From a bacterium (lineage in GTDB: Bacteria > UBA8248): a stretch of DNA of 64,000 nucleotides. The position numbers and the translations under genes were made by a program. Below the pieces are notes generated by a model. The model ran no database searches, was not told the DNA's origin, and saw only the letters and a program-made list of their open reading frames with translations. Each line of letters begins with the position of its first letter. Position 1 is the first letter of the stretch. The DNA is taken from positions 1,696,001 through 1,760,000 of the forward strand of contig OY843592.1 of the NCBI GenBank assembly GCA_963692865.2, in the 5' to 3' direction. Positions 26,744 through 63,650 of the stretch are shown one piece after another.

Positions 26744-27040
26744 GAGATTGTTGAAAAAGTTCCCTCGATGCGGGAAAACCACCGTCATTCCGGCGAAAGC
26801 CGGAATCCATTTTTACGCCTTTTGCTTTTCGTCGGGGTTCCCGCGCATCGCCGGGGAAGGAAATGCCGCGGTGTATCCACCCGCATCCGCAAATGGATTC
26901 CGGCTTTCGCCGGAATGACGAACAAAGCTGCATTCGCTCGTAGGGGCGGTTCGCGAACTGTGGGACAACCCCGAGGAGGGGTTGTCACTACAATCCCATC
27001 GTTTCGAACCTTCATTTATCAGGACTTTTTCAACAACCCC
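26744..27040. mobile_element. MITE-like element with IS1182-type ends, carrying CGTC- and GTAG-type palindromic repeats
   Basis: Ends tgttgaaaaag / ctttttcaacaacccc. Internal cgtcattccggcgaaagccggaatcca ... tggattccggctttcgccggaatgacg and gtaggggcggttcgcgaac. Confidence 0.7.
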
Positions 27041-27045
27041 CACAG

Positions 27046-27121
27046 GGGCGGGTAGCTCAGCTGGAAGAGCGGTGCCCTTACAAGGCATAGGTCGGAGGTT
27101 CGAACCCTCTCCCGCCCACCA
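27046..27121 (+). tRNA. tRNA-Val (TAC), copy 2 (identical to copy 1)
   Basis: Same 76-nt sequence as 25762-25837. Confidence 0.97.
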
Positions 27122-27147
27122 ATGCAAAATGGCTTGGCAGAGTCGGG

Positions 27148-27567
27148 CTATTGGAAGATCAACTGCCAAGAAACACCGAATCGATCCTGCACCCAGGCGT
27201 ATTTCCGGCTGAACTCATAACTGTCCAGAGGCATCAGCACGGCTCCATCGTCTGAGAGGCGCGCGGCCAGGCGCTCGACTTCCGCCTCCGTGCCGGATGT
27301 CACAAAAAGCGAAACGGAAGGGGTGAAGCCGAAGTCATGTTTCACCGGAGAGTCGAAGCAGCGCATCGCACGGCCTGCGAGCGTGAATTGCGCCGACTTG
27401 ATCTTTCCCGCAGCACCTGGTTCGTCCTTTCCCCAACGCTCGACGCTATCCACCGAGCTCTCCGGAAAGGATTCGACGTAAAACCGCATCGCCTCTTCGG
27501 CGTCGCCTTCGAACATCAGGCAGGGTGCGATTCGGGGAGACTCCAGTGGCGCTTCTCTTGTCATCAT
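27148..27567 (-). CDS. VOC family protein (PhnB / 3-demethylubiquinone-9 3-methyltransferase-like)
   Basis: PCLMF.GDAEEAMRFY, FTPSVSLFV and WVQDRFGVSWQL motifs. Confidence 0.9.
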   Translation of the reverse strand: MMTREAPLESPRIAPCLMFEGDAEEAMRFYVESFPESSVDSVERWGKDEPGAAGKIKSAQFTLAGRAMRCFDSPVKHDFGFTPSVSLFVTSGTEAEVERLAARLSDDGAVLMPLDSYEFSRKYAWVQDRFGVSWQLIFQ

Positions 27568-27640
27568 GGCACTCCTGAGGATGGGCTCTTACGAATCGAA
27601 TTTGCTGGTTGGTTTCTTAAATTTCCGACCGCTCCATCAT

Positions 27641-28373
27641 GGGTTGTTGAAAACCCCTTTCGCTCTCGGAAATTTCCCTCACAACCGGCCCTGCTGCGGA
27701 CTGCGCCCTTGAACAGCATAGCCAATCGACGAGAAAAAAAGAATCACTCCCCCCTTGAGGGGTCGGGCATCCCGAGGGGAATGCCCGATGAAAAATCCCC
27801 TCGATGCGGGAAAACCACCGTCATTCCGGTGTCGGAGCCGACCAAGGCGGGAGGGTTCGTCGGAATCCATTTTATGATTTTTGCTTTCGTTTTTGCATTT
27901 GATTCCGACTCGCGGGAGGGAGCGCCGCGCCCGAATCCGGAACGGATGAGGTGGATATATATGGCGGCGTTCGTATCTTCCCCGGCCGGGAGCGAGGACG
28001 GCCGGGCGAAGGGCCAAAGACAAAGGCGAAAATGGATTCCGGCTTTCGCCGGAATGACGAGCAAAGGCCGCTTCTGCGAACCAAGGATTTTCGTGTAGGG
28101 GTCGCATACGGGGTTATTGAACAAGCCTCTAGGAACGAGGGTTTGACGCGACCGATGAAGGAGGAAAAATCACTCCCCCCTTGCAGAGCGACCAACAACC
28201 ACTCCCCGCTTGAGGGGGAGTCGGTGAACTAAGGGCGTAAGCCCGCAAGTGAACCGGAGGGGGGTATAATTCGGAATGGCGATATAACGCATTTTACCCC
28301 CCACCGAATCGGCCTTCGCACAAACCGCTCGGCCTCTTCGTCGGGCTTTCCCCTCAGGAAGCCCGACCCTCAA
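27641..28373. repeat. Composite cluster of palindromic repeats (IS1182-type ends, CCCTTGAGGG family, CGTC family)
   Basis: TIR-like motifs at about 27641 and 28110. cactccccccttgaggg at 27745, with variants at 28171 and 28200. CGTC doublet at about 27820-28060. Confidence 0.75.
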
Positions 28374-29887
28374 GGGGCTGTTGAAAAACCCCTGGTAATA
28401 TGATCGAATGGATGAACGCCCACTCGCCCGAGATGGGAGTACCCCGGATGATGGGAAGCAATAAGCGCGGGCAGATGGATTTGTTCGTGGCCGGTTCTCT
28501 GGAACGGTTGGTTCCCGAGGATCACGTCCTGATGCGCGTGGACCGCGTGCTGGATTTGAGTTGGCTTCGGGAGGAGGTGGCGGATTGCTATTGCCTGGAC
28601 AACGGTCGTCCGGGGGTGGACCCGGAAGTGGCGCTGCGGTTGATGCTGGCGGGCATGCTGCTGGGCTACGTGCACGACCGGCGTCTGCTGCGCGAGGCGC
28701 AGGCGCACCTGGCGGTCCGGTGGTTCATCGGGTGCGGGCTGCACGAGGATTTGCCGCATCATTCGAGCCTGACGCGTATCCGTCAGCGCTGGGGTGAGGA
28801 GCGGTTCAAGGAGATATTCCGCCGCACGGTTCAGGCTTGCCTGGATGCGGGGGTGGCGAAGGGGGAAGTGGTTCACGTGGACGCGTCGTTGATCCGGGCG
28901 GACGTGAGTTGGGAGAGTCTGGCGGAGCGGCACGCGGAGGAGGTGATACGGGAGAACCCCGCCGCGGATGAGTCTGGGAAGAAGGGCGGCGGGGGTTCGG
29001 GGCCGGTGAGCCGTACGGACCCCGACGCGCGTCTGGCGCGCAAGAGCGCTCGGGCGGGGTTCGAGCCGAGCTACAAGCACCACGCGGTGGTGGACGATGC
29101 GCGTGGCGTTGTTCTGGACGTGGCGGTGACGGAGGGGACGGTGAACGAGCGGGAGGTGATTGAATCGCAGGTGGAAGCGGTGAGCGAGTTGTCGGGACGC
29201 GCGCCGGTGATGGTGACGGCGGATTCGGGGTATGCGTACTCGAAGGTATACGGTTTATTGGAGCGTCGGGGGGTGGATGGGCTGATACCGGCGAAGGGGG
29301 AGCCCACGCAGAGCCGTGTGCCGCTGCGCCGGTTCCGCTACGACGAGCGCCACGACATCGTGAAGTGTCCCGGGGGGAAGAAGCTGACCCCCCGGGGGGC
29401 GACGGAGCGGGGGCGGTGGTATGTATCGAGGACGCGCGATTGCGCGGGTTGCGCGCTTCGGGCGGATTGTCTGCCGAAGTCTCAAACGAGCAAGGCGGTG
29501 TTGATTCCGCACGAATATCCGTCGCTGTTGCGCGCGCGTCGGCGGCATGCGCGGTGGGGGGAGGAGGAGCGCCGGCTGTGGCGCCGGCACATGGGGCGTT
29601 CTGAGGGCTACCACGGCGAGGCGAAGAGTTGGCACGGACTGGGGCGGGCGGTGCGCCGGGGCCTTGCGAACATGCGGATCCAGGCCTGCCTGACGGCGAC
29701 TGCGGTGAACCTCAAGCGGCTCGCCGCCGCAGTAGCGGCGCGTTTATTCGCCCTGTGGCGGGTCTGGTTCGCCCGGAGACGCCGTCTGCGCGCGCATCGC
29801 GCCGTCTCACGCCGATTCGGCTTGCTCTCCGCCGCCGCGTGAACCGCCATATCACCCGCTTCCGAAACGGGGTTTTTCAACAGCCCC
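28374..29887 (+). mobile_element. IS1182-family insertion sequence
   Basis: Perfect 18-bp terminal inverted repeats ggggctgttgaaaaaccc / gggtttttcaacagcccc, flanked by a CTCAA direct repeat (28369-28373 and 29888-29892). Single transposase ORF. Confidence 0.92.
28448..29842 (+). CDS. IS1182-family DDE transposase
   Basis: LVPEDH.L, GRPGVDP, LPHHSSLTRIR, VHVDAS, TDPDA, ADSGY, Cys-rich insert, and E..HGEAK..HGLGRA..RGL..NLKR. Confidence 0.92.
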   Translation: MMGSNKRGQMDLFVAGSLERLVPEDHVLMRVDRVLDLSWLREEVADCYCLDNGRPGVDPEVALRLMLAGMLLGYVHDRRLLREAQAHLAVRWFIGCGLHEDLPHHSSLTRIRQRWGEERFKEIFRRTVQACLDAGVAKGEVVHVDASLIRADVSWESLAERHAEEVIRENPAADESGKKGGGGSGPVSRTDPDARLARKSARAGFEPSYKHHAVVDDARGVVLDVAVTEGTVNEREVIESQVEAVSELSGRAPVMVTADSGYAYSKVYGLLERRGVDGLIPAKGEPTQSRVPLRRFRYDERHDIVKCPGGKKLTPRGATERGRWYVSRTRDCAGCALRADCLPKSQTSKAVLIPHEYPSLLRARRRHARWGEEERRLWRRHMGRSEGYHGEAKSWHGLGRAVRRGLANMRIQACLTATAVNLKRLAAAVAARLFALWRVWFARRRRLRAHRAVSRRFGLLSAAA

Positions 29888-29940
29888 CTCAAGGGGGGAG
29901 TGAAATTCAGCGCGCTCCTTTTTGGGGCTTTTTCAACAAT

Positions 29941-29987
29941 CCCACACCCCGGGGGTGGGGAATCTCTCCCCACCCCCGGGGTGTGGG
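29941..29987. repeat. Perfect 21-bp-stem hairpin
   Basis: cccacaccccgggggtgggga-atctc-tccccacccccggggtgtggg. Confidence 0.85.
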
Positions 29988-30033
29988 TTTCATCCTGAAC
30001 CGCTTGGGCTGTGCCCGAGCCGCTTGTCGCGTC

Positions 30034-36600: not shown

Positions 36601-37244
36601 CTCATCCCGAGTAGGCCCGAAGGGCCGTATCGAGGGACGCCATGACGCCGCAAGAGCCGGCCACATATGTTTATATGCTGCGCTGCGCCGACGGCAGCTT
36701 CTACACCGGCGTTACCCGGCGGCCGCTCGAAGAGCGCGTCGGCGAGCACAACAGTGGCGCACTCGGGGGCTATACGCTCAGCAGAAGGCGGGTCGAGCTC
36801 GTCTGGTGTGAGGAGTTTCGCCTGGCGAGCGACGCCGTCGCGGCGGAGCGCCGGATCAAGAGCTGGTCGCGCCGCAAGAAACGCGCCCTGATCGCGGGGG
36901 ACTGGCCCCGGCTGAGGCAGGCGGCGAAGAAGGATTTCAAGCGGAAAGGGTGAGGGAAGGTATCTAATGCGAAAACAATAGCTTCGTCCCGAGTAGACCC
37001 TTCGATACGCGGCTTCGCCGCTACTCAGGGTGAGGCAGGGTTTGGGTGGCGGCTACTCAGGGTGAAATGTTGGGTGAGGATAGGGTGTTGAAAAAATCGG
37101 GCCATGAAAATATCACACCCTCATCCCGAGTAGGCAGATTGGGAGGAGGAAAAACTCCTCATCCCGAGTAGACCCCGAAGGGGCCGTATCGAGGGACGCC
37201 CTTCGACAATCTTATCCCGAGTTCCTAGGGGCTGCTCAGAGTGA
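36601..37244. repeat. Cluster of ctca.cc.gagtag-hairpin-cgtatcga.gg palindromic repeats around the GIY-YIG gene
   Basis: Copies at 36601-36641 (+), 36997-37035 (-) and 37158-37200 (+). Partial copies at about 37052-37065, 37120-37134 and 37199-37244. Confidence 0.8.
36642..36953 (+). CDS. GIY-YIG nuclease family protein (YhbQ/UPF0213-like)
   Basis: YVYMLRCADGSFYTG.T....R..EHN, YT..RR.V.LV..E and A...ERRIK.WSR.KK.ALI. Confidence 0.92.
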   Translation: MTPQEPATYVYMLRCADGSFYTGVTRRPLEERVGEHNSGALGGYTLSRRRVELVWCEEFRLASDAVAAERRIKSWSRRKKRALIAGDWPRLRQAAKKDFKRKG

Positions 37245-43523: not shown

Positions 43524-43897
43524 AGGGATGTTGAAAAACCCTCGATCTCGAAATTCGGCGTATGGCGCCGACCGGGGGGCTATAGCGGACAGGCCCCTGC
43601 GCCTGTCCGAGGTCGCGACCTTGGACCGTTCACAAGAACGGCCCACTACGAGGTCGTGCGGTTTTGTTCGTTATTCCGGCGCATGCCGGAATCCAGGGAC
43701 TTTGCTTTTGTTTTTTTCTTCTGTATTCCCGCCAAAGAGTGGGGGATGAAAAACCGGAGCGTTGCCATTCTCCTCGGCTCTGGATTCCGGCTTTCGCCGG
43801 AATGACGGTGAGTAATCTCGATTGTAGGGGCGGTTCGCGAACCGCCCCTACGGAGCCAAGTCGACCGAGAGGCGTAAGGGGGTTTTTCAACAGCCCC
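43524..43897. mobile_element. MITE-like element with IS1182-type ends and REP cargo
   Basis: Ends gggatgttgaaaaaccc / gggtttttcaacagcccc. Contains a CGTC doublet (about 43669-43808) and gtaggggcggttcgcgaaccgcccctac. Confidence 0.75.
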
Positions 43898-44757: not shown

Positions 44758-45053
44758 ACTCGGGGATTTCTTCTATATTTTCCGGGAGACTCCGAAAAGA
44801 GGCATCCCGCAGCTTTCGCCAGAACCGGCGCGCCGGCTCCGCTGGAAGCGGACGCTCCCGCCCGGGAGCAACAGAACCCAGGGGGCGAGTGGTCCTGCAC
44901 GCCTCGCCCCGGAGGCTCCCTGATGAAGAGGCGCTTGGCGGAGGCGCGCCGATTTGCTATGGATGATTCCGTATAGTTGACGTGAAACGTCTGCTCCCGC
45001 CGGAGAAGTATGAAAAGCCAGCGGCGCGGCTACCATGCCATGAGGTCATCCCC

Positions 45054-46205
45054 ATGAACGGCGACGCATTCGACGCCCTGGTCATCGGCGGCGGAATCAA
45101 CGGACTCTCCGCCCTCTATCACCTGAAACGGCTGGGCGCTGCGCGCGTCGGGCTGGTGGAGCGCTTCGAGATCGGACACGACCGGGGCAGTTCGCACGGC
45201 GCGGCCCGCGTCACGAGAAGCGCCTACGTCGCCCCTGAATACGTCCGCCTCATGCAGTGGGTGCACAAGGAAGAGTGGCCCAGGCTCGAAAAAGACTTGC
45301 GAAAAAAACTCGTGTATTCCAATCCCGGGATATACACCGGGCCGCCGTGCGAGCGTTACCATTCCTACATCCACGCGGTGGCGCAAGAGGGCGTGGACGT
45401 GGAGCTCCTCACCGCGGACGAGGCGCGGGAGCGGTTTCCCCAGTTCACCTTCGAGAATGCGGAGAGCGCCCTGCTGGACAAGACGGGAGGCTTCATATCC
45501 TCCAGGGAGGCGATCGATTCGCTCGCCGCGCTGGCCCGCGAGAACGGAGTGAGGGTCCTTGAGAACACCATCGTCCACGGAATCGACCCGGCGTCCGACC
45601 CCGTAAAGGTCGAAACGAGCGAGGGAACCTTGGAGAGCGAACGCCTCGTCGTGGCGGCGGGGGCGTGGGCGAAAGACTTGCTCCCGTTCCTGAAGCCCAG
45701 GCTCAACATCGCCCGCCAGACGGTCGGGTATTTCACGCCCGAGGATGATTTGGACGCCTACCGGCCCGGCCGTTTCCCGGTCTGGGCCTACAGGGAGCAG
45801 GACGAGAACAACCTTTTCTACGGGATGCCCGAATTCGGGCGCGCGGGCGTCAAGGTGGGCCGGCATCTGAGAGTCGGGGTGGATGACGATCCGGACAACC
45901 CGCCTGACGCCATCGACCAGGAGAAAATCGCCGACGTGAAGCGCTTCATGGCGCGCTTTTTCACCTGCAAGAACTGGACGCTCGCCGGGGCGGAACACTG
46001 CCTCTACACGAACGCGCCGAACGAGGATTTCATCATCGACTTACACCCCGAAAACCCGCGGGTCGCGTTCGGGGCCGGCTTCTCGGGCCACGGGTTCAAG
46101 TTCGGCCCTCTCACGGGAAGGCTTCTGGCCGAACTGGCGTGGGAGGGGAAAACTTCCATACCCGATGCCGAACTGGCGAGGCGCCTTTTTTCACTCAAGA
46201 AATAA
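45054..46205 (+). CDS. FAD-dependent amine oxidase (monomeric sarcosine oxidase/SolA-like)
   Basis: IGGGING, GSSHG..R..R, CLYT..P.EDFIID and GFSGHGFKF motifs. Confidence 0.88.
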   Translation: MNGDAFDALVIGGGINGLSALYHLKRLGAARVGLVERFEIGHDRGSSHGAARVTRSAYVAPEYVRLMQWVHKEEWPRLEKDLRKKLVYSNPGIYTGPPCERYHSYIHAVAQEGVDVELLTADEARERFPQFTFENAESALLDKTGGFISSREAIDSLAALARENGVRVLENTIVHGIDPASDPVKVETSEGTLESERLVVAAGAWAKDLLPFLKPRLNIARQTVGYFTPEDDLDAYRPGRFPVWAYREQDENNLFYGMPEFGRAGVKVGRHLRVGVDDDPDNPPDAIDQEKIADVKRFMARFFTCKNWTLAGAEHCLYTNAPNEDFIIDLHPENPRVAFGAGFSGHGFKFGPLTGRLLAELAWEGKTSIPDAELARRLFSLKK

Positions 46206-46649
46206 GGTCTTATCTCTCCCGATGAGGGTCCGCGTCCCTCGCGCGGCGACGGGTATGGATCCCTTAAAGCGAGCGCAGAAAGGCGAGCAGCGCCGCGATT
46301 TGAAGTCCATAGAGATTCCGAAGCACACCCATAAAATTTGATTCTTTGGTTTTTCTTCTTGACAAGGAAGGATTTCTGATAGATGGTTAATTATTAGTTA
46401 ACATTATTTAATTATCATTAACATCTGATCGTTTACTTGATTTCCACAAGTTGGAGGACGCCCGGCGGTTACAGAACTTACAAACAGGACTGATTCGACC
46501 GCACCGCATCAATTTGTCACGAGAAAGCAGAACTTGTCCTGCCCCGCTGCCCCATCATCTTCGTATTACCCCCACGATACGATGGCTGATGCGGGTGGCG
46601 GGGCGGCGGGTTTTTCGAAAGCCTATGACACCCCTTGCTCAATGAGTTT

Positions 46650-46978
46650 GTAGGGACATGCCTCTGTGCCTGTCCGAAGCCCCGTGTCTGTCCCTGTGAA
46701 GCGTAACCACGGTCCGAACTTTCCCTTTTCGGGAAGTTCGACGCCCCTACGAGTGAATACGCTTTTGATCGTCATTCCGGCGCATGCCGGAATCCAGGGA
46801 TTTTGCCTTTGTTTTTTTATTTCTTCTGTATTCCCGCCAGTGAGCGGGGGATGAAAAATCGGAGCCTCGCCATTCTCCTCGGCTCTGGATTCCGGCATTC
46901 GCCGGAATGACGGCGGTGGTCGATTCCGACCGATGAGGAAGGAATCGACCGAGCAAGGAGGACTTTTTCAACAACCCC
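46650..46978. repeat. REP cluster (GTAG unit plus CGTC doublet) ending in an IS1182-type TIR
   Basis: gtagggacatgcctctgtgcctgtcc, a CGTC doublet at about 46770-46912, and ggactttttcaacaacccc. Confidence 0.75.
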
Positions 46979-46995
46979 GGCGAACGGGGAATGCC

Positions 46996-47820
46996 TCAGG
47001 ACGCTCCATCCCCAATAAGCGCCCGCAGATTCTCCGCCGCCAGCCGCGCCGCCGTTTTTATGTCGGGTTTGGAAACTATCTGGCACGTCAGGTAGCCCGC
47101 ATACCCTATCGAGCGGAGCGCACCGATGACCTCATCGAAGGGAATGTGCCCGCCGCCGGGATAGTAGCGGTTGTTCTCGGCGATGTGCATGTGGCCCAGA
47201 AACGCTTTCGATTCGATGATGGGAGCCGTGAACGACGCCTCATCCGCGTTCATGTGGTAGGTGTCGAGCATGAGGACGAGGGCTTCATGGCCGAGTTCCC
47301 GGCAGAGCGCCGCGCCTTCGGCAGCCGTGGTCACGTTGTTGATCCAGTGACTGCACAAGGGCTCGAGATAGAGTCTGGCTCCCCGCGAGGCGGCCTCATC
47401 CGCGAGGCCGAGGAGCGCGTCGCGCATCCAGCGGAGAGAATCCTCGCGCCGCGCATCCTCGCAGAGGTTGCCGCGCGAGGAGCCGATCACCATGCCGCAC
47501 CCGAACCTCTGCGCCATATCGAGCGCGTCCAGGTGGCGGCGCCAGGACACCTGCCTGATCTCGGGGACGGGGTGGCACAGCCATATCCTGTCCTGAAAGC
47601 CCATGGCCGCCGTGTGGATCATCGAAACGGAAAGCCCCCGGCTGTTGATCTGCTTTTCTATCTCGTCCAAATCGAGTTCGGCTGGCTTACGCACCGAGAG
47701 CTCCACCGCCTCGAAACCCGCCTCGGCCACGCAATCGAGGTTCCCCGCCAGGGTCCCCTGCGCGCTGGGGAGGTTGGGGGTGGAAATATCCGGCGTGGCG
47801 ATCTGGTAGCTGAGCTTCAC
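46996..47820 (-). CDS. Sugar phosphate isomerase/epimerase (xylose isomerase-like TIM barrel)
   Basis: GFEAVEL, LEP, LDTYHM and H.HIAENNR..PG.GHI.F motifs. Confidence 0.88.
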   Translation of the reverse strand: MKLSYQIATPDISTPNLPSAQGTLAGNLDCVAEAGFEAVELSVRKPAELDLDEIEKQINSRGLSVSMIHTAAMGFQDRIWLCHPVPEIRQVSWRRHLDALDMAQRFGCGMVIGSSRGNLCEDARREDSLRWMRDALLGLADEAASRGARLYLEPLCSHWINNVTTAAEGAALCRELGHEALVLMLDTYHMNADEASFTAPIIESKAFLGHMHIAENNRYYPGGGHIPFDEVIGALRSIGYAGYLTCQIVSKPDIKTAARLAAENLRALIGDGAS

Positions 47821-48275
47821 GTTGCAGTCTCCTCTGCCCTCATCGCGCCCCAGGACGCGGCGCGGTGCGGCGTTATCTCAATCATCCATGCGTGGATCGT
47901 TATCGGTCCGCGGTACTGCGTGTATTTCTCCCGGAGCCGCTCCGCCGCCTTCTCATACGCTTCGGCGTCCGCCTCGGCATGGATGATCCTCGCGCTCCCG
48001 AAGATGAGGGCGAAGCCGAGTTTCGCCCAGTCGTCCTCGTAGTGATCCACCAGGAATGTGACCTGCGCGTTCTCGCGGATGTTGTCGAGCCTTTTGAGCC
48101 GCTCGACGTCTTTTTTCTGCTTGCCGTCCACCGGAACGTATATCTTCCCGTCCACCACGGCGAAAACGACGGGCACGACGTGGGGCGCGGCGTCCTTCCC
48201 CGCCGTCGCCAGCCGCGCCACGCGCGCGCGCTCCACGAACGCCCAGGCATCATCGCCGAATCTAGGCTTCGTCAT
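47817..48275 (-). CDS. PPOX-class (possibly F420-dependent) oxidoreductase, Rv0121-like
   Basis: ARVARLAT....PHVVPVVFA, VD.K.K...LKRL.NI.EN..V..LVDHY.DDW, and L..KY.QY. Confidence 0.82.
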   Translation of the reverse strand: MTKPRFGDDAWAFVERARVARLATAGKDAAPHVVPVVFAVVDGKIYVPVDGKQKKDVERLKRLDNIRENAQVTFLVDHYEDDWAKLGFALIFGSARIIHAEADAEAYEKAAERLREKYTQYRGPITIHAWMIEITPHRAASWGAMRAEETAT

Positions 48276-49816
48276 TTCGCCTCCCCGTAGCCCCCGCCGC
48301 CCGGCGTGATAAGCGTGAGGGTGTCGCCGGGCTCCATGTCGGTGGTGACCTTGGGGTCGATCTCATGGTCGTTGATGCGCACCTGCCCGCGCGCGCCGTG
48401 CCCCCCGCCGAACAGCCCCGGCGCCGGCGATTTCGTGCGCTCGGCCATGAACGATACGGTGATGCGCGCCGGCGAGTCGTTCCGGAAGACGATCCGCTGC
48501 CCGCAGCCGCCCCGGAATCTTCCGGCGCCGCCGGAGTCCCTCAATATCGTCTTCTCGATGAGGGTGAAGGGCGTGATGCGCTCGATCACCTCTATCGGCG
48601 TGTGGGAGACGTTGCTCGGATAGCTCAGGCACGCGTGGCCGTCTCCGCGCGCGGTGGCGCCCGTGCCCCCGTTCTGGAAGAAAAGCCCCGCCGTCCGCAC
48701 GCCGCGCTTGTCCAGCCCCGTGAAGTTCACGCACCAGAGCGGCGAGCCGCTCGCCGCGGGCGCCTCCTCGGGGATGACGGGGGCCAGCGCCTCGAAAACG
48801 GCGGCGGGCAGGTAGTGGCCCACCAGCATCCGCCCGCCTCCGGCGGCGGGGTGGAGCGGCTCCAGGATGCTGCCCGGCTCCGTCCGCACGTCGATGGGCC
48901 GGAAACACCCCTCGTTGTTGGGAACCTCGGGACACAGGACGCATTTGATGGGATAGACCGAATAGGCGTAGGTGTAGTTGTAGGCCACGTTCACGGCGCG
49001 GTCGACCTGGGGCGAGGAACCCGCGTAGTCGATGACCAGCGAATCCCCGGTTTTCTCGATTCGCGTCCGCACCCGTATGGGCTCCGCGAGGCCGTCGGTC
49101 TCGATTTCGGACGCGAATTCCCCGTCGGGCAGACGGCGCAGGGCGTCGCGCATGGCCTTCTCCGAGCGGCCCTGAATCTCCTTCGTGAGCGCGCGCAAAT
49201 CCTCCAGACCGTATTCATCCAGCAGATCGCCCAGGCGTTTTTCCGCCAGACGGTTCGCCGTGAGCTGGGCGTTGATGTCGCCCATCACCAGATCGGGCAC
49301 GCGCACGTTGTAGCGGATCAGGTCGATGAGCGTCCGGTCGGGCTCGCCGCGCCGGTACATCTTCATCATGGGGATCTGGAAGCCCTCCTCGTAGACCTCC
49401 CTCGGGTCGGGGGAGCGGATTTTCCCGCCGATGTCCGGCAGGTGGGCCGTACTGGCCGAGAAGCCGATGAACTTATCCCGGTGGAACACCGGCATCACGA
49501 TGTTCACGTCGGGGAGATGCCCCGTTCCGTACCAGATGTCGTTGGTGATGAGGATGTCGCCGGGCTCCAGCGTCTCGGGCGGAAACGCTCTCAGGAAGTG
49601 GCGAACCGTTATCGGCAGGGTGCCGATGAACGAGGCGATGCTGGCTGAGGACTGCACGAGGGAGTGGCCCTGATCGTCGGTGATCACGCAGGAAAAATCG
49701 TTCGACTCGCGCACCAGCGTCGAGAACGAGGTGCGCACCAGCGTCGCCGCCGCCTCGTCCACGATGCCGATGAGACGCCGCCAGAGCACTTCCAGCGTGA
49801 CGGGGTCGAACGCCAT
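48272..49816 (-). CDS. Hydantoinase B / 5-oxoprolinase family subunit
   Basis: DPVTLEV, RTSFS...RES.D, PGD..ITND...GTGHL.D, H..DIGG, DSGGAG.FRGG.G and TPGGGGYG motifs. Confidence 0.93.
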   Translation of the reverse strand: MAFDPVTLEVLWRRLIGIVDEAAATLVRTSFSTLVRESNDFSCVITDDQGHSLVQSSASIASFIGTLPITVRHFLRAFPPETLEPGDILITNDIWYGTGHLPDVNIVMPVFHRDKFIGFSASTAHLPDIGGKIRSPDPREVYEEGFQIPMMKMYRRGEPDRTLIDLIRYNVRVPDLVMGDINAQLTANRLAEKRLGDLLDEYGLEDLRALTKEIQGRSEKAMRDALRRLPDGEFASEIETDGLAEPIRVRTRIEKTGDSLVIDYAGSSPQVDRAVNVAYNYTYAYSVYPIKCVLCPEVPNNEGCFRPIDVRTEPGSILEPLHPAAGGGRMLVGHYLPAAVFEALAPVIPEEAPAASGSPLWCVNFTGLDKRGVRTAGLFFQNGGTGATARGDGHACLSYPSNVSHTPIEVIERITPFTLIEKTILRDSGGAGRFRGGCGQRIVFRNDSPARITVSFMAERTKSPAPGLFGGGHGARGQVRINDHEIDPKVTTDMEPGDTLTLITPGGGGYGEAK

Positions 49817-51906
49817 TATCCGCTCACCTCGATGACGATGTGGCCGCCCGCGTCTTTCCTGAAACGCGCGTCTTGAGGGACCACGATGGTGGATTCACGC
49901 TCCTCGACGATGGCGGGGCCGTTGAATTCCCGCCCGCCCGGCAGCGAATACCGGTGGTATACGCGCGCCTTCTGGAATCCGCCTTCGGGGCCGAAATATA
50001 TTTTTCTCGATCCCTTCTCAAAATCGCTGTCATCCGGGAGCGGCGCGACGTCCATGCCGCCCGGCGCAGGCCCCAGCATCGTCAGCCGCCATGCGGCCGC
50101 CTCCGCCGCCACGTTCTCGATTTTCCGCAGATACCGCCGCTCATAGGCGCGCTCGAAGGACTCCTGCATATTTGCGCTATCTCGTACCGGCATCCCTCCC
50201 TCCTCGGGGAGTGGGACGCTCACCGTATCCGTCTGCCCCCGGTAGCGCATGTCGGCCGCGCACAGAAACTCCCAGCGCCCGTCCACGTCGAGCCCCTCAC
50301 CCAGGGTATCTTTCATCGGAGCTGCCATCTCCCGGTAAAGCGCCTCGACGCGCGCCCAGTCCACCGCATCCACGTCGGACACCAGGACGCGGACGGCGTC
50401 CGCCCTCGGCCGCGCCGCCAGGAGACCGGCGGCCGAGGCCACGCCCACGTCCGGCGGGCAGACGACCCGGCGGATGTAGAGTTTGCGCGCCATGTGGCAG
50501 GCATGAAGCGGCGCGGCGCCGCCCGTGGCGATCAGGGCGTAGTTCCTGGGGTCGCCTCCCTTCTCGGCGATGTGGACTCGCGCGGCGCTCGCCATCTGCT
50601 CGGTGATGATCTCGTAAATCCCCCACGCCGCATCCTCTACGCTCATGTCCAGCTCCCCGGCCAGAGACGAGACGGCTTCGCGCGCTTTGTCGGTGTCTAA
50701 TTGCATCGCGCCGCCCAGGAAGAAATCGGGATTGAGATAGCCCAGGAGCAGATTCGCATCCGTGACGGTGGGCTGCGCCCCTCCCTGAGCGTAGCAGGCG
50801 GGCCCCGGGGTCGCTCCGGCGCTCTGCGGGCCGACGCGAATCAGCCCCAGGTCGCTTATCTGCGCGATGCTGCCGCCGCCCGCGCCGATCTCGACCAGGT
50901 CCACCGTGGGCGAGAGGATGGGCAGGCCGCTTCCTTTCTGGAACCTGGAAGTCCGCGCCACCTCGAAGCGGTTCTCCGTCGCGGGTTCGCCGTCCTCGAT
51001 CAGGCATATCTTGGCCGTCGTCCCGCCCATGTCGAACCCCAGGGCGTGGGCCTCGCCCAGGGAGCGGGCGATTTGCGCCGCCGCGAGCGCGCCGCCCGCA
51101 GGCCCCGATTCGATGATGCGCACCGGATGCTCCCGCACGCCCTCGACCGCCGCGAAGCCCGAATTGGAGAGCATGATGAACAGATCGCCGGAAAAACCTG
51201 AATCCCGCAGGCTCGCAAGCAGGCGCGCCAGGTACGCATCGGCGATGGGCCGCACGTAGGCGTTCGCCGCCGTGGTGGACGCGCGCTCGTACTCGCCCGT
51301 CTCGGGGGCCACGGCGGATGAGATGGAAACGGGCGTATCCTCCGCGATTTCCTCGATGGCCGCCCGGGCCGCCCTTTCGTTTGCAGGATTCACGGGCGCG
51401 TGGAGAAACGAGACGGCGATGGATTCCGCCCCCATTTGAATGAGCCTTTCCGCCTCGCGCTTCACGGCTTCTGCGTCTATGGGGACCACCACCTCGCCAT
51501 CCACGTGGACGCGCTCGGGGACCTCGGCCCGCAACTCCCGCGGGATCAGGGGTTCGGGCATCTCCTGGTGCAGGTCGTAGAGGTCGAAGCGCTTCTCGCG
51601 CCCAATCTCGATGACGTCCGAAAACCCCCCCGTGGTGATGAGGCCCGTGCGCGCGCCTTTTCTCTCGATGAGGGCGTTGGTGATGAGGGTCGTGGCGTGC
51701 ACGATGCTCGCCAGATCGGATGCGTCGACACCCGCGGATTCGAGTATTTTCCTGAAACCCGCCAGCGTGCCCTCGGCGGGGTCATCGGGCGTTGTCAGCA
51801 CCTTGGCGATATGGACCGCGCCTCGCGCCTCATCAACCAGCACGAGGTCGGTGAACGTGCCCCCGATGTCTACGCCCAGGCGGATTTGCGTGTCCTTATC
51901 CATCAT
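49816..51906 (-). CDS. Hydantoinase A / 5-oxoprolinase family subunit
   Basis: GVDIGGTFTD, HATT..TNA, ESGPAGG, DMGGTT, IGAGGGSIA and GPQSAGA.PGPACY motifs. Confidence 0.93.
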   Translation of the reverse strand: MMDKDTQIRLGVDIGGTFTDLVLVDEARGAVHIAKVLTTPDDPAEGTLAGFRKILESAGVDASDLASIVHATTLITNALIERKGARTGLITTGGFSDVIEIGREKRFDLYDLHQEMPEPLIPRELRAEVPERVHVDGEVVVPIDAEAVKREAERLIQMGAESIAVSFLHAPVNPANERAARAAIEEIAEDTPVSISSAVAPETGEYERASTTAANAYVRPIADAYLARLLASLRDSGFSGDLFIMLSNSGFAAVEGVREHPVRIIESGPAGGALAAAQIARSLGEAHALGFDMGGTTAKICLIEDGEPATENRFEVARTSRFQKGSGLPILSPTVDLVEIGAGGGSIAQISDLGLIRVGPQSAGATPGPACYAQGGAQPTVTDANLLLGYLNPDFFLGGAMQLDTDKAREAVSSLAGELDMSVEDAAWGIYEIITEQMASAARVHIAEKGGDPRNYALIATGGAAPLHACHMARKLYIRRVVCPPDVGVASAAGLLAARPRADAVRVLVSDVDAVDWARVEALYREMAAPMKDTLGEGLDVDGRWEFLCAADMRYRGQTDTVSVPLPEEGGMPVRDSANMQESFERAYERRYLRKIENVAAEAAAWRLTMLGPAPGGMDVAPLPDDSDFEKGSRKIYFGPEGGFQKARVYHRYSLPGGREFNGPAIVEERESTIVVPQDARFRKDAGGHIVIEVSG

Positions 51907-52868
51907 TCCGCGTTCAGGAGAATCTCGCCGTCTTTGATGACGGCATCGCCGTCGAACCAGACCGAGGGCGCCCGGATGACGGCGTCGAAGTGGGTCTTGG
52001 CCTGCACGTCGCCGCCGAGGTTGGCGGAGGTTCCGATTCCGATGTGGATGGTGCCGTTCACGCCCTCGTCGTTCAGCATCTCGCCCGTGAAATCCTTGCA
52101 TTCGGGATTGAGGCCCATCGCGAACTGCGCGACGTTGTAGACCCATTCATCGTCCTGCGCGGCCAGAAGAGTTCTGAGGAATTCCGCCTGCCGTCCGCCG
52201 GTTATCTCCCGCACGAAGCCGTTCGTAATCCTGAAAGTCACAGGCTCCTCGACCACGCCCACGCCGTAATAGGGAATGCTGCCGTCCACTACGAGGGCGC
52301 CGCTCGTCGTCCCCTCCACGGGCGATGTGTTGGCCTCGATGTTGGGAACGGCGGTGAAGCCGGCGCCGTCGAGCACGCAGGCGTGGCTGTTGCCCGCGCG
52401 TCCCTCGACGCTGAGCACAAGTTCGGTGCCCGCCGGGTTGGTTACGCGCACCTCGCGCGCCGCGCTCAGGCGCGCCGCCAGGGCGTCGCAAAGGGGTTTT
52501 CTGGCCCTGAAATCCGCCATCAGCCCGCCGCGCTCCATCTGGCCGGGCGTGAACGCCGTCATCGAGAGCACGCGCGCGCCCGCGCCTATCGCCTCCCTCG
52601 TCGCCCGCGTATGGGCGAGGGCGTGGGTGACGGGCAGGAAAACCACGTCGGAGGCCCGCATGGCCCCGGCCACGGCGCGCGGGGGCTCCTCGTTGTCTAT
52701 CTTTCTGGCCGGGCATACGACTATCGTGGCCCTCGCGCCGCGTTCGCCCGCCTCATCGCATAGGGCCTGCGCGATGGGGAGGCGTTCCGCGTCGGTGACG
52801 ATGAGAACGTCTTCGCCTTCCTTCACGCCGGCGCAATCTCCAACCAGAATTTTCGCGCCCTTTTTCAC
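51903..52868 (-). CDS. M29 aminopeptidase-like metalloprotein
   Basis: GEDVLIVTD, GTEL, P..E....PVEG...G.LVVDG, .FAMGLNP, DE...GTIHIGIG and HFD. Overlaps the hydantoinase A start. Confidence 0.78.
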   Translation of the reverse strand: MKKGAKILVGDCAGVKEGEDVLIVTDAERLPIAQALCDEAGERGARATIVVCPARKIDNEEPPRAVAGAMRASDVVFLPVTHALAHTRATREAIGAGARVLSMTAFTPGQMERGGLMADFRARKPLCDALAARLSAAREVRVTNPAGTELVLSVEGRAGNSHACVLDGAGFTAVPNIEANTSPVEGTTSGALVVDGSIPYYGVGVVEEPVTFRITNGFVREITGGRQAEFLRTLLAAQDDEWVYNVAQFAMGLNPECKDFTGEMLNDEGVNGTIHIGIGTSANLGGDVQAKTHFDAVIRAPSVWFDGDAVIKDGEILLNAE

Positions 52869-52920
52869 CGAACTGTCCTTCGTTGTGAATACATGATCGC
52901 GAAACGAAGTCCGCACGCAT

Positions 52921-53178
52921 GGGGTTGTTGACAAACCCCCTTCTTTCTCGGAATTCACCACTCCCGTCATTTCGGCGTCATTGCCGTTTCTGTTGTAGGG
53001 GCCGCATATATGCGGCCCTCCCCGTTCGTGGCATGCGGGTCGCATATATGCGACCCCTACACTCCCTACGGCAAGGTGATATCCTGTCGCCGTCATACCG
53101 GAAATTGCGGGACTTTTTAATAACCCCTCAAGGGGGGAGTGGTTTGGCCCGACCCGCCAGGGCTTTTTCAACAACCCC
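52921..53178. mobile_element. MITE with IS1182-type ends and a GCAT target-site duplication
   Basis: ggggttgttgacaaacccc ... gggctttttcaacaacccc, flanked by gcat (52917-52920 and 53179-53182). GTAG REP cargo. Confidence 0.8.
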
Positions 53179-56990: not shown

Positions 56991-57318
56991 GAGGTTGTTG
57001 AAAAAGTCTTGGAAAGCGATTTTGAGTTTCACGCCCGCTTTTGACGTTCACTCCCCCCTTGAGGGTCGGTCTCCCTCGGGGAAGACCGACGGTGAGCTAA
57101 GGGCATATGCCCGCAAGCGAACCGGTGAGGGGTATAATTGAAATTGCACGATAAAACACGATTTACCCCCCACCGCATCAGCCTTCGCACAAACCGCTCG
57201 GCTTCTGCGTTGGGCTTTCCCCTCGGGAAGCCCAACCCTCAAGGGGGGAGTGGTTCTTCTCTCTCATCTGTTGATTCTAAACGCCAAACCACGAAATAGA
57301 GGGTTTTTCAACAACCCC
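56991..57318. mobile_element. MITE-like element with IS1182-type ends containing a CCCTTGAGGG element (57049-57252), itself inside a GTAG REP doublet (56943-57332)
   Basis: Ends ggttgttgaaaaag / gggtttttcaacaacccc. The flanks ggacaggcacgggg.. and ..gcctgtccctac are the two halves of one REP hairpin. Confidence 0.75.
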
Positions 57319-58443: not shown

Positions 58444-58460
58444 GAATCGGCATGGCGGAA

Positions 58461-58772: not shown

Positions 58773-58970
58773 GGATCATTCCCTCCTACGGATGATGAAG
58801 ATTCTTCCGATTTGAACCCCGAGGGAACGACCCTCTGGTGATTCACGTTTATTGAACTTAAATCCACCTGGAAACACCAAAAACAAGGCGATGCTATCAG
58901 ATGCGCCTTGAGAAAAGCAAGGGATGAAACACACAAAATCGAGATTCTTTTGCCCGGGGGCGAGGTTTTT

Positions 58971-59900: not shown

Positions 59901-60082
59901 GTGGATGGGCGCATGATTCCCGATCATATTCCACGCAAATAATATATGATGAAATGATTATAAAATAAGGCGGCGCGCGGCTCTAGCGCGTCCGGGCTTT
60001 CTGCATCGGCTTCGTATACGCGCGAAAACGGGAATTTGGAGCATAACCTATGGACCCGGTGGTTCCCATATCGAAATTCAAC

Positions 60083-60319
60083 GGGGTTGTTGAAAAAGTC
60101 CTATGCGGGCGGATTTGCGTTTGTAGTAGTAGGGACAGGTCGCGACCTGTCCCTACGGTAGGTGGCGTTCTTTTCTCGGGACCCAAGATGAATTTGGTTT
60201 TCGTTCGTCATTCCGGCTTTCGCCGGAATGACGGCTGTAAGGGCGATTCGCGAACCGCCCCTACGCAAGCCTCGTCAACCGGGATTCACTCTCCCCTCAA
60301 GGGGGTTTTCAACAACCCC
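60083..60319. mobile_element. MITE-like element with IS1182-type ends and mixed REP cargo
   Basis: ggggttgttgaaaaagtcc ... ggggttttcaacaacccc. Contains gtagggacaggtcgcgacctgtccctac, cgtcattccggctttcgccggaatgacg and a GTAG-like unit. Confidence 0.75.
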
Positions 60320-60412
60320 GCGTGGGCTGCTCAGGACGAAGGAGCAAGGTCGGGCGGGCCGGTGCGCGGTTTCCTCTGCCCAATCCGCTAGGGCGCGCCG
60401 CCCGCGCGCTTC

Positions 60413-61303
60413 TTATTCTTCGAGGCCCATCAGGCGGGCGGGGTTTCGCTGCACCATCCAGCGGATCTCCTCGTCTTCGAACCCCAGGCGCAGCATGGTG
60501 GCGATGAACATGCGCAGCATTTCCGTGGGCGGGGGATTGAGGTCGAGTTGCGCGTCGGTGCTCATCACGCATCGCTCGGGGCCGAGGGCGCGCGCGGTTT
60601 CGGCGACTTTCACCGGGTCGAGGTCGCGCCACATGGGGAAGGCGGATATCCACGTGAACTCGACGATGTAGCCCAGGTCCGCCACCTCGCGAAGCTGCCC
60701 CTCGCTCGCGCCCACGATGAAGATGATCGGATGGGTGAAGATGAATTTCTTGACCCCGATCTCCTTCGCGCGCCGCGCCAGGGCGACGCCCTCCTCCGCG
60801 GAGAGATGCCCCGTGGCCACGGCCACGTCCGCGTCGCGGGCGATTTCGAGTATGGCGTCCGCCTCGGGGCATATCGCTCCGTTTCCGTCCATAACCGTCA
60901 GACCCTGCGCGGGCGGGGGCCGGCTGTAGGCTTCCGCGATGCGCTTGCTGTAGGCCCCCACCGCGATGTCGTTCGCCGCCGAGTAGGTGGGCATCCAGAT
61001 GACCTTCACGCCCAAGCGCGCCGCGCTTTCCGCCGCGAAGGGCGAGAGACCGCCCACGTTGGCGTTGAGCGTGATGGCGCCGAAGGCCGTGACGCCCGGA
61101 TAGACCTCGTTCAGGATCCGGGCTTGGGCGATGGTGGGCCACAGGTGGCTCTTCATCACGAAGCCGCGCATGCCGACGCCGCGCGCGAGTTCGGCCCATT
61201 CATGGTCCAGGACGCGTCCGGGTTCTTCCAGGAATACCTGGGGGAAGATGTGGGCGTGAACGTCGATGGCGCCTTCGAGGAGGTCGTCCGCCTTCGTGCG
61301 CAT
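60413..61303 (-). CDS. DUF6282-like amidohydrolase-fold protein
   Basis: GAIDVHAH, GM...V.KSH, G.ITLN..VGG, WMPT, ATGH.S, THP, STD and NP..L motifs. Confidence 0.78.
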   Translation of the reverse strand: MRTKADDLLEGAIDVHAHIFPQVFLEEPGRVLDHEWAELARGVGMRGFVMKSHLWPTIAQARILNEVYPGVTAFGAITLNANVGGLSPFAAESAARLGVKVIWMPTYSAANDIAVGAYSKRIAEAYSRPPPAQGLTVMDGNGAICPEADAILEIARDADVAVATGHLSAEEGVALARRAKEIGVKKFIFTHPIIFIVGASEGQLREVADLGYIVEFTWISAFPMWRDLDPVKVAETARALGPERCVMSTDAQLDLNPPPTEMLRMFIATMLRLGFEDEEIRWMVQRNPARLMGLEE

Positions 61304-61414
61304 AAGGAAAAACCCTCCGAATACGAGTAGAAAATCACCTGAGATCATGAAAATTCATCATGCGCCATGAGGGGGCGGCGGGCAAGCCGGTCGCCGAAAA
61401 AGCCCCCTGACGCG

Positions 61415-61778
61415 GGGGTGTTCAAAAAGCCTCGAATCTGTGATTCGGCGTGTGTTTGGATGACCGGGAGGGTGGAAACAATCACTCCCCCTTGAGGGTT
61501 CTTGCCGTCCGACGAGAGAGGAATCACTCCCCCCTTGAGGGTCGGGCATCTCCTCATCGGGATGCCCGACGACGAGCTAAGGGCGTAAGTCCGCAAGCGA
61601 ATCGGTGGGGGGTAAAATTCTGAATGGCAAAAAAACGCGATTTACCCCCCACCGATTCAGCCTTCGCACAAACCGCTCGGCTTCATCGTCGGACTTTCCC
61701 CTCGGGAAGCCCGACCCTAAGGGGAGAGTGATTCGTAGATCGCAAGGGTTTCGTAGGGGCGCTTCCCGAAGCGCCCCC
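61415..61778. repeat. Cluster of CCCTTGAGGG-family elements (full copy 61525-61730) with a degenerate TIR and a GTAG unit
   Basis: ggggtgttcaaaaagcc, cactccccc(c)ttgaggg at 61483 and 61525, and gtaggggcgcttcccgaagcgccc. Confidence 0.72.
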
Positions 61779-61871
61779 GCAAGCCGGTTCCCGCCGCGCG
61801 ATTCAGGTGATATTCTCCGGGAAATGCTCTCATGAGCAAGAGTAATGACTTCTCCCGGAGGAGGATGTCTC

Positions 61872-63002
61872 ATGCCCCACGTCCAGAGCATCGGAACGCC
61901 GGTGCGCGAAATCGAAACGCCCGCTCTGATAGTCGATCTCGACGTCATGGAGGAGAACCTCGCGTTGATGGCGAAGCGCCTGGAGGGAACGGGCGTCCGG
62001 CTCCGCGCCCACGCCAAGACGCACAAGAGTCCCTGGCTCGCGAGAAAACAGATGGCCCTCGGCGCGGTGGGGGTTTGCTGCCAGAAGGTGAGCGAGGCCG
62101 AGGTGATGGTGGAGGGCGGGGTCGAGAACGTGCTCGTGAGCAGCGAGGTCACGGCCGTCTCGAAGCTCAAGCGTCTGGCCGCGCTCGCGCGCCACACGAA
62201 CCTGATGGTGGTGGTGGATCATCCCCAGGGGGTGGCCATGCTCTCCGAAGCCGTGACGGCGGCGGGAGCGGAGATCGGCGTGCTCGTCGACGTGGACGTG
62301 GGCCAGGGACGATGCGGCGTGGCGGCGGGAGCGGCGGCGGTGGAGCTGGCCCGGCGGGTGGAGGCGGCGAGGGGACTCGAACTCAAGGGGATTCAGGCCT
62401 ACCAGGGCGGCGCCCAGCACGTGGACGGCTTCGCCGAGCGGCGCGAGGTCTACGCGGACGCCATTGCGCGGATGCGCGAGACCGTGGCCGCGTTCGGGGC
62501 CGCCGGGCTTTCGCTTGAGATCAAAAGCGGCGGCGGCACGGGTTCATGGCGGTGGGACGCGGAATCGGGCGTGCTGAACGAGCTTCAGGCGGGGAGCTAT
62601 CTCTTCATGGATTCCCACTACCGCAGCATCGGCGGCGAAGGTTCGGACACGTATGACGACTTCAAGCCCAGCCTGTTCGTGCTGACGACCGTGGTCAGCG
62701 CGCCCGGGCCCGGACACGTCGTGATGGACGCCGGCCACAAGGCGCTCTCATCGGACAGCGGGCTGGCGCCCTGTCTCGAACTCGAAGGCGCCGTGCACGC
62801 GCGGGCATCGGATGAGCACGGCGTGCTGGAACTCTCCCCGGGTTCCAGGCGGCCCGAGATCGGCGAGACGCTCCTGTTCCAGCCCAGCCACTGCGACCCG
62901 ACCATCAACCTCTACGACGTCTACCACGGCGTACGCGGCGGTATGGAGGAGGGCGTTCTCGAAGCCGTGATCCCCGTGGCCGCGCGCGGCTGCGTCTGGT
63001 AG
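61872..63002 (+). CDS. DSD1-family PLP-dependent enzyme (D-threonine aldolase / D-serine dehydratase-like)
   Basis: ETPALIVDLD, RAHAKTHKS (PLP lysine), RCGV, GGGTG, ELQAGSY.FMD, DAG.K, SDEHG and PSHCDPT.NL motifs. Confidence 0.9.
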   Translation: MPHVQSIGTPVREIETPALIVDLDVMEENLALMAKRLEGTGVRLRAHAKTHKSPWLARKQMALGAVGVCCQKVSEAEVMVEGGVENVLVSSEVTAVSKLKRLAALARHTNLMVVVDHPQGVAMLSEAVTAAGAEIGVLVDVDVGQGRCGVAAGAAAVELARRVEAARGLELKGIQAYQGGAQHVDGFAERREVYADAIARMRETVAAFGAAGLSLEIKSGGGTGSWRWDAESGVLNELQAGSYLFMDSHYRSIGGEGSDTYDDFKPSLFVLTTVVSAPGPGHVVMDAGHKALSSDSGLAPCLELEGAVHARASDEHGVLELSPGSRRPEIGETLLFQPSHCDPTINLYDVYHGVRGGMEEGVLEAVIPVAARGCVW

Positions 63003-63042
63003 GTCGAACCCGACTGATGAATGAGGGTTTGCCGACCGGTGA

Positions 63043-63650
63043 GGGGTTGTTGGAAAAGTCCCTCTGTGGAGGGGGATTAGGGGACGCATATATGCGTCCC
63101 CTACACTCCGCCCTCGTTCTTTCGGACCGTTCGGGCGGACACATCGGTCCGTCCTTACAAAACCATCGCACCCCCACCGCTTCGGGGACTTTTTCAACAG
63201 CCCCTTGAGGGGGTGATCCTCCACCGAGGAGAATTCTGAATTCACTCCCCCCTTGAGGGGGGTGTTGAAAAACCCCTCCTCGCTCGGATTGACCACCGCC
63301 GTCATTGTCGTTTCTATTGTAGGGGCCGCATATCATGCGGCCCGGCTTTTTCGCCTTCACAATACGGGTCGCATGATATGTCGGACATATATGTCCGACA
63401 TACGGGTAAAACGTGGTTGATCCGAGAGGGACAGGTTTTTCAACAACCCCTTGAGGGTCGGGCTTCCCGAGGGGAAAGCCCGACAACGAGGCAAGGGCGA
63501 AGCCCGCAGACGAGTTGCTGGGGGGAGCTTTTGCCGTGGCATGTCCCCCCACCGAGTCAGCCTTCACCTGTCGGTTCGGCTTCCTCGACTCCCCCTCAAG
63601 GGGGGAGTGAAATTTAGCGCACTCCTTTTGTGGGCTTTTTCAACAACCCC
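63043..63650. mobile_element. Nested MITE/REP cluster, including a MITE at 63258-63450 with a TTGAG duplication inside a CCCTTGAGGG element
   Basis: TIR pairs at 63043-63204 and 63258-63450, plus an extra right TIR ending at 63650. TTGAG at 63253-63257 and 63451-63455. Confidence 0.8.

Follow-up and report, generated by a model that had tools for sequence, protein, structure and literature searches.

Background

Transposable elements of the miniature inverted-repeat type (MITEs) whose ends match those of IS1182-family insertion sequences (ISs) have been published from Methanosarcina acetivorans and Paracoccus yeei. In the former, the MITEs related to ISMac2 measure 160 and 169 bp, occur in 14 and 7 copies and are flanked by a 4-bp repeat or by none (PMC3852290), and in the latter MITEPye1 has an 18-bp terminal inverted repeat (TIR), 4-bp repeats and 1-3 chromosomal copies (PMC11578231). 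Here we analyse a stretch of 64,000 nucleotides (the window, G000:C1:1696001-1760000) from the bacterial genome G000 (4,150,441 bp in 8 contigs, 61% G+C; 97% complete, with a contamination estimate of 6.69%), in which a 1514-bp IS of the IS1182 family lies among many short non-coding elements that have the same ends. The MITEs of M. acetivorans and P. yeei are likewise small, non-coding and intergenic, with TIRs of 18-26 bp that match an IS1182 element, short direct repeats and a proposed movement in trans. They differ in having 4-bp repeats and a single type of element for each IS, whereas the elements described here have 5-bp duplications and dozens of interiors built of repetitive extragenic palindromic (REP) modules, and copy numbers of 1-3 or 7-14 stand against about 300 pairs and 1129 ends, together with palindrome targeting and a spread over a genus. 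Taking all the results together, we conclude with a probability of roughly 0.82 that these elements are a genus-wide swarm of modular MITEs with IS1182 ends, moved in trans, targeting palindromes and made mosaic by nesting and recombination.

Other described systems share some of these traits. The REP-targeting ISs IS1397, ISKpn1, IS621 and IS1594 also insert into short extragenic palindromes but, according to PMC3184786, they are autonomous and belong to the IS3 and IS110 families, whereas we find an IS1182-family system whose insertions are mainly non-autonomous and whose targets are palindromes of C-runs and G-runs rather than GTAG or CGTC REPs. These two REP superfamilies have their definitions in Di Nocera et al. 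2013 (PMC3733652), the GTAG repeats by a tag followed by a stem of 5-13 bp and a loop of 2-20 nt, and the CGTC-1 repeats by a CGTC tag, an 8-bp stem beginning with AT, a loop of 4 nt and the tail CCA, mostly arranged as inverted dimers. The passengers of our elements fit both definitions; that paper treats such flanking sequences as target palindromes and does not report a transposase for the CGTC repeats, whereas here the flanks are IS ends with duplications. The bacterial interspersed mosaic elements (BIMEs) of enterobacteria and the neisserial intergenic mosaic elements (NIMEs) are also intergenic mosaics that combine several palindromic repeats variably, but without bounding IS ends and without target duplications. 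The systems of REP doublets forming hairpins (REPINs) and REP-associated tyrosine transposases (RAYTs) have an inverted REP doublet as their repeated unit, whereas no RAYT was found in G000 and the moved unit is bounded by the TIRs of a DDE transposon.

The IS1182-family element and its ends in the genome

The transposase encoded in the window was assigned to the IS1182 family by its match to the NCBIfam model NF033551 (345.5 bits, cut-off 270), the next-best family model being IS5 with 91.6 bits, under its own cut-off; the Pfam matches are to DUF772, DDE_Tnp_1 and DDE_Tnp_1_6, at the level of domains. ISs of the IS1182 family have one open reading frame (ORF) between terminal inverted repeats and a total length of about 1.3-1.9 kb, and here a single ORF is set between non-coding margins of 26 and 45 bases. 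A second copy, 100% identical, is located at G000:C1:1499149-1500662. The genome also contains two fragments of about 380 bp (G000:C1:414456-414837 and C2:17150-17530) of a second IS1182-family variant with 84% DNA identity to the intact IS. Otherwise the only stretch of at least 60 nt shared with the IS is one of 69 nt, in another part of the genome, that matches the right end of the IS. The short elements are hence not simple internal-deletion derivatives of the IS, and the view of the initial annotation that their interiors are no transposase remnants is borne out.

Searching for the end motif GGGGNTGTTGAAAAA with up to two mismatches gave 26 hits in the window, where dinucleotide-preserving shuffles (n = 100) had 0.39 on average and 2 at most, and recovered, with 0-2 mismatches, each of the paired and single ends that had been listed from inspection of the window. 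Over the whole of G000 there are 1129 matches, 445 of them exact, 390 differing at one position and 294 at two. When these ends are aligned on the motif, 19 positions are conserved (GGGGYTGTTGAAAAASCCC), with a sharp stop at the outer G and a fading of the conservation past position 19, and this 19-nt consensus is that of the terminal repeats of the 1514-bp IS. TIR pairs no longer than 1000 bp together take up 92,652 bp, or 13.7% of the non-coding DNA as roughly estimated from ORFs.

Pairing of ends and target duplications

The ends are arranged in pairs that face each other. Inward-facing neighbours lie within 500 bp in 286 of 332 cases, with spans that peak at 150-350 bp, against 41 of 329 for outward-facing neighbours. 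At the outer edges of inward neighbour pairs (up to 2500 bp) an exact 5-bp direct repeat occurs in 60 of 310 pairs, where shuffling of the right flanks gives 5.5, and an exact 4-bp repeat in 13 of 310 (2.2 expected). Both the pairing and the flanking duplications are thus above chance genome-wide, as the initial annotation had supposed. The individual repeats that it reported, GCAT around the element at 52921-53178, TTGAG around that at 63258-63450 and CTCAA around the IS, are all present, but the 4-bp type exemplified by GCAT belongs to a minority and 5 bp is the dominant length.

Applying to all 1129 ends a bracket-matching rule that permits nesting, we obtained 364 pairs. The span is 151-500 bp in 288 of them, an exact 5-bp duplication flanks 62, and 54 have another pair inside them. 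A search for degenerate partners of the ends left single by this rule was uninformative, inward candidates within 600 bp being found for 212 of them and outward controls for 139. Neighbouring ends in the same orientation lie no more than 150 bp apart in 147 cases.

Families and modules of the interiors

Clustering of the 296 pairs of up to 700 bp gave full-length families of 39, 25, 24, 16, 9, 7, 5, 3 and 3 copies, sixteen clusters of two and 133 singletons. Identity between copies reaches 100% in the four largest families, and exact 5-bp duplications flank 23 of the 39 copies of FAM0, 8 of 16 in FAM3, 5 of 25 in FAM1 and 3 of 24 in FAM2; those of FAM0 and FAM3 are spread over several target types. 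A block of about 85-100 nt with GTAG palindromes recurs in FAM0, FAM3, FAM4 and FAM6 in either orientation, a CGTC-tagged dimer in FAM5-8, and FAM1 and FAM2 are made of long imperfect palindromes of their own type. The GTAG units of the family consensuses (for example one in which a 9-bp stem with a 3-nt loop comes after the GTAG) fit the GTAG-tagged definition, and the consensus of 348 CGTC units has the CGTC tag, an 8-bp stem ATTCCGGC starting with AT, the 4-nt loop GAAA and a CCA tail. CGTC units up to 600 bp apart form 141 inward pairs (median span 136 bp) against 4 outward ones.

When the 55 nt inside each end were clustered, 34 end classes appeared that pair promiscuously. Class 0 (59 ends) is combined with 16 partner classes and class 1 likewise with 16, and the commonest pairings account for 14, 13 and 12 of 283 elements. 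The class consensuses follow the order TIR, one of a few linkers of 20-30 nt, and REP, and the same linker is joined to different REPs. Many of the elements that lack a duplication have flanks of two target types, one on the left and another on the right, as recombination between copies would give. The idea that the palindromes are an interchangeable cargo can be maintained in that REP modules are common to families in varied orientations and combinations; it has to be restricted in that the REPs also exist independently of the elements.

Targets and nesting

Reconstructing the targets of 60 sites with a duplication revealed that few palindromes recur, namely ...CACTCCCCCC-TTGAG-GG..., ...TACCCCCC-TTGTC-AGGGGGG..., AAACGCTCCT-TTCTC-AGTCGCGTTT and GAACCC...GGGTTC. 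There is a strong preference for C in the five positions 5' of the duplication and for G 3' of it. Perfect stems of at least 6 bp centred no more than 2 nt from the duplication are present at 18 of 62 sites, compared with 1.3% of 5000 random positions, and stems of at least 4 bp at 25 of 62 compared with 10%. Strict symmetry about the 5-bp duplication was considered and rejected, complementary flanking arms of at least 4 nt being present at only 4 of 62 sites; the centre of symmetry is offset from the duplication by about half to one base. The 5 nt outside an end read TTGAG, CTCAA, TTGTC or GACAA at 208 of the 1129 ends, with CTCAA as the commonest flank. The proposal that REP-like repeats provide the insertion targets thus holds for the palindromes of C-runs and G-runs and fails for the GTAG and CGTC types, which were the target in 0 of 60 reconstructions.

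Several families carry target palindromes near their ends, and elements and IS therefore insert into one another. The two IS copies share their duplication length and their target, a TTGAG/CTCAA palindrome belonging to a FAM2-type element; one occupies the left copy of this palindrome and the other the right. In a doubly nested case (G000:C1:712098-712589) the outer duplication GATTG and the duplication TCCTC of the inner element (712308-712517) are both intact. A longer segment of 1823 bp (G000:C1:1830072-1831894) has the same ends, CTCAA on both sides, repeat-rich ends and a single-copy core of 1.45 kb, with no Rfam match and no convincing ORF. It may be an element with an extensive cargo, or else, given that CTCAA exceeds all other flanks in frequency, the matching flanks may be a coincidence.

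Empty sites within the genome and in relatives

For 36 of the 62 elements with a duplication, G000 contains an uninterrupted paralogous match to the reconstructed target, with at least 25 nt on each side of the junction and up to 48 copies per element. Removal of the IS together with one CTCAA leaves a host that aligns through the insertion point with other elements at 81-88% identity.

Orthologous sites were compared at two loci of the window. At 43524-43897 (20 relatives), G005 has the same 374-bp element, 9 relatives have 28-41 bp of intergenic DNA without the motif, 7 have another sequence with the motif and 3 lack one anchor. The alignment indicates that the element replaced a short spacer directly after the upstream stop codon, so that the site does not cleanly set one copy of a duplication against two. 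At 63010-63690 (17 relatives), 5 have 27-105 bp without the motif, 7 have motif ends on both sides, 3 have an end on one side and 2 have other sequence of 397 and 656 bp. Here the outer junctions are common to several species (...CGACCGRTGA followed by the left end, and the right end followed by GGRAAGA...), and the interiors are wholly different between species, with CGTC dimers in some and GTAG REPs or C-run palindromes in others, which would reflect either an old insertion remodelled in place or repeated hits. Empty sites in related genomes, which the initial annotation had anticipated, were therefore found at both loci (9/20 and 5/17 relatives), although neither gives a clean comparison with one copy of the duplication. 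Four public sequencing runs contain the stretch and 20 a small share of it; the contigs of 4 runs showed only short-sided joints of the repeat type (20-28 nt), none of them bridging any element. With TIRs that match an IS, target duplications, a small size, non-coding sequence, many copies, and filled as well as empty sites, the elements have the properties of MITEs.

Distribution among relatives

Among 30 relatives, 13 members of the genus have 31-383 hits to the strict pattern and each of them has some transposase match, and 5 members have 0 or 1 motif hit and no transposase match in any. The motif-free members are the most distant of the genus, with 80-83% conserved-gene identity compared with 87-92% for the rest. 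In a class-wide comparison of 51 genomes, the expansion is seen in 17 of 22 other members of the genus, and outside the genus there are at most 3 hits per genome.

Elements within the window

Positions in Table 1 are those of the window. The initial annotation had listed an end pair at 28110/29943 around the IS; this pair does enclose the IS, but the IS has its own ends at 28374 and 29887. Four of the ends listed as unpaired (27640, 37081, 46978 and 61414) stay so, while that at 63650 proved to be the right end of the FAM2-like host of the element at 63258-63450. This last element has other copies in the genome with 98-99% identity. At its right end, the element at 26744-27040 is separated by 5 bp from the start of a tRNA-Val gene (anticodon TAC, 27046-27121). 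In G000 the orientation of about 8 kb (44900-52915) is opposite to that in every relative with both flanking blocks listed, and one breakpoint of this inversion adjoins the element at 52921-53178; an inverted repeat linking the two breakpoints was looked for and none was found.

Table 1. Positions of the IS, the TIR-bounded elements and the single ends in the window
Feature	Position	Strand	Remarks
TIR-bounded element, 297 bp	26744..27040	.	CGTC-REP inverted dimer and GTAG REP inside; no duplication
Left-type end without partner	27640..27654	+	Its element truncated by the host MITE at 28110
Left part of FAM2-like host MITE interrupted by the IS	28110..28373	.	Host alignment through the insertion point
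Autonomous IS, 1514 bp	28374..29887	+	19-20 bp terminal inverted repeats; 5-bp duplication CTCAA on both sides
Transposase ORF, 480 aa, IS1182 family	28400..29842	+	NF033551 and Pfam matches
Right stub of the IS-interrupted host MITE	29888..29943	.	Own TIR 29929-29943
Solo end, 2 mismatches	37081..37095	+	Motif search
FAM5 element, 374 bp	43524..43897	.	CGTC dimer and GTAG REPs inside; no duplication
Solo right-type end	46964..46978	-	CGTC dimer adjoining at 46770-46912
Element, 258 bp	52921..53178	.	4-bp flanking repeat GCAT; GTAG-REP inverted pair inside
FAM2-like element, 328 bp	56991..57318	.	CCCCCCTTGAGGG target palindrome present in two inverted copies
Element, 237 bp	60083..60319	.	GTAG REPs and one CGTC palindrome
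Solo end, 1 mismatch	61414..61428	+	Motif search
Element, 162 bp	63043..63204	.	Motif search
FAM0 element, 193 bp	63258..63450	.	5-bp duplication TTGAG; nested in FAM2-like host
Remainder of FAM2-like host around 63258-63450	63451..63650	.	Right TIR 63636-63650; other piece 63205-63257

A model of the swarm and its alternatives

The most likely interpretation of these sequence comparisons is that the elements are moved in trans by an IS1182-family DDE transposase binding their ends. In the mechanism that we propose, elements of mostly 150-450 bp, non-coding and bounded by the 19-bp inverted repeat of the IS, would be recognised at these ends by the transposase of the IS and mobilised by it. 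Insertion would occur at the centre of short palindromes of a C-run and a G-run, roughly C5-N5-G5, and would leave a 5-bp duplication. Those families with target palindromes near their ends would attract further insertions, the IS included, and give rise to stubs, and new combinations of end modules would come from nested insertion followed by deletion or by recombination between copies. REP dimers would be multiplied as passengers whenever a family is amplified.

Whether the REPs owe their numbers to the elements is the point on which another explanation comes nearest to ours. The elements could be true MITEs, already in place, that GTAG and CGTC REPs with their own route of movement or conversion enter as they would any intergenic DNA, with recombination adding the rest, and we regard this as a serious possibility, if a somewhat less than even one. 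It is consistent with the finding that 65-80% of each palindrome type lies outside the detected pairs, that 79 of the 141 CGTC dimers are outside TIR pairs and 62 inside, and that different REPs stand behind identical linkers. It also agrees with G007, a member of the genus without TIR and without transposase, in which 120 CGTC units are found at up to 2 mismatches and 103 at up to 1, in another arrangement. As the REPs are mostly outside the pairs and are present in this genome, they do not depend on the elements, and the CGTC palindromes, which had been taken as cargo of the elements, form inverted dimers of about 136 bp of their own, most of them outside TIR pairs. The CGTC units of G007 have a GAAG loop and mostly form outward-facing pairs about 121 bp apart, where those of G000 face inward at about 136 bp. 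Y1-transposase matches, weak or partial, in 11 of 23 genomes of the genus also fit such a route; no match to a Y1/RAYT transposase was found in G000, which is 97% complete, and we rejected a RAYT as the driver of the GTAG REPs on these two observations. Also opposed to an independent origin of all REP copies is the three- to fourfold enrichment of non-coding REPs within TIR pairs, which contain 45 of the 82 CGTC dimers and 255 of the 562 GTAGGGG sites where 13.7% would be expected, and the presence of REP modules in the consensuses of families that have their own duplications, so that at least those modules were multiplied by MITE transposition. REP copies inside amplified families were of necessity multiplied along with them.

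Two other explanations concern the ends themselves. The elements could have been spread by another variant of the IS1182 family that has since decayed or been lost, the present IS being a recent arrival with the same ends. The two fragments of the 84%-identical variant in G000 would fit such a history, as would the mutual identity of the intact IS copies, which have no more than 84% protein identity to the copies of relatives, and the age of many families, whose median pairwise identity is 70-88%. The same 15-nt end is moreover found on the transposons of two alphaproteobacterial metagenome-assembled genomes with transposases that are 59-60% identical, indicating that the end sequence is older than the genus. 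Nevertheless, 38 of the 741 copy pairs of FAM0 are at least 98% identical, which points to recent activity, and the resident IS has the exact 19-nt end, the same target and the same duplication length as the elements, for which reasons we consider a lost driver improbable. Far less credible still is that the 19-nt motif is a functional site of the host, such as a protein-binding site or a terminator, that selection has maintained and transposition has not spread. The motif is indeed abundant, intergenic and conserved across the species of the genus. Yet it is identical to the ends of the IS, it is absent from the 5 genus members that are likewise without a transposase, and the 5-bp flanking duplications, at 11 times the shuffled expectation, contradict such a role, as do the paralogous and orthologous empty sites.

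Several observations nonetheless weigh against a swarm of MITEs moved in trans by this IS. The case for the proposed mobilisation in trans is built on matching ends, duplications, targets and co-occurrence. An exact duplication is kept in only 62 of the 364 bracket-matched pairs, and 401 of the 1129 ends have no partner by the same rule. Part of the count (55 of the 1129 ends) comes from the small contigs C2-C8, which are partial duplicates of C1. The copy numbers of motif and transposase do not follow each other, G000 exceeding the others with 429 strict-pattern ends but having only two intact IS copies, and the motif-rich genomes G003, G005 and G016 have weak or fragmentary transposase matches in assemblies of 190, 350 and 30 contigs. 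The two nested composites with an outer duplication are each single-copy, so that movement of a composite as a unit is not supported. Finally, an insertion regenerates C4-N5-G4 at each junction and re-use of junctions would be expected, but only 1 pair of a right end and a left end is separated by a 5-nt spacer and 4 by 4-6 nt; this route was accordingly discarded. On the assembly itself, we observed that several of the small contigs are near-identical to regions of C1 with elements and flanks included (for example C4:8407-8969 and C1:1186147-1186710), which suggests that they are redundant haplotype contigs.

Implications

The kind of element is already known, both as IS1182-ended MITEs and as IS insertion into REPs, and it is the scale and the modular build that are unusual. 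The statement of the initial annotation that no such arrangement had been described accordingly needs to be narrowed, as IS1182-type MITEs are in print. Our literature search, which left supplements, ISfinder entries and subscription journals outside its scope, found no description of REP-laden IS1182 MITEs in many families, and within the literature searched we found nothing published on the combination of hundreds of copies, dozens of REP interiors, self-carried targets with nesting and genus-wide spread.

In Halothiobacillus neapolitanus, all CGTC-1 dimers lie inside a 41-bp palindrome (PMC3733652), the arms of which, compared by eye in the consensus as printed there, agree with our TIR in 13 positions out of 17. 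REP dimers, those of the CGTC type included, might be multiplied by TIR cassettes of this IS1182 subgroup as a general vehicle, and the palindromes of H. neapolitanus might be ends of the same kind; we advance this as a speculation that is probably wrong. If it were true, the TIR-linker-REP architecture would be how REP families and DDE transposons propagate together. Di Nocera et al. (PMC3733652) raised the question by what means CGTC REPs can spread in the absence of their own transposase, and in this genus the passenger route can be only part of the answer.

In practical terms, the motif often stands at contig ends in the fragmented relatives, the elements breaking short-read assemblies, and in annotation they give rise to spurious ORFs. 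The genome has one of the heaviest MITE loads that can be documented from the present data, and the IS that probably drives it has only two intact copies. It offers a natural system in which one transposase end fronts many unrelated interiors, elements nest in targets that they carry themselves, and REPs travel as passengers.

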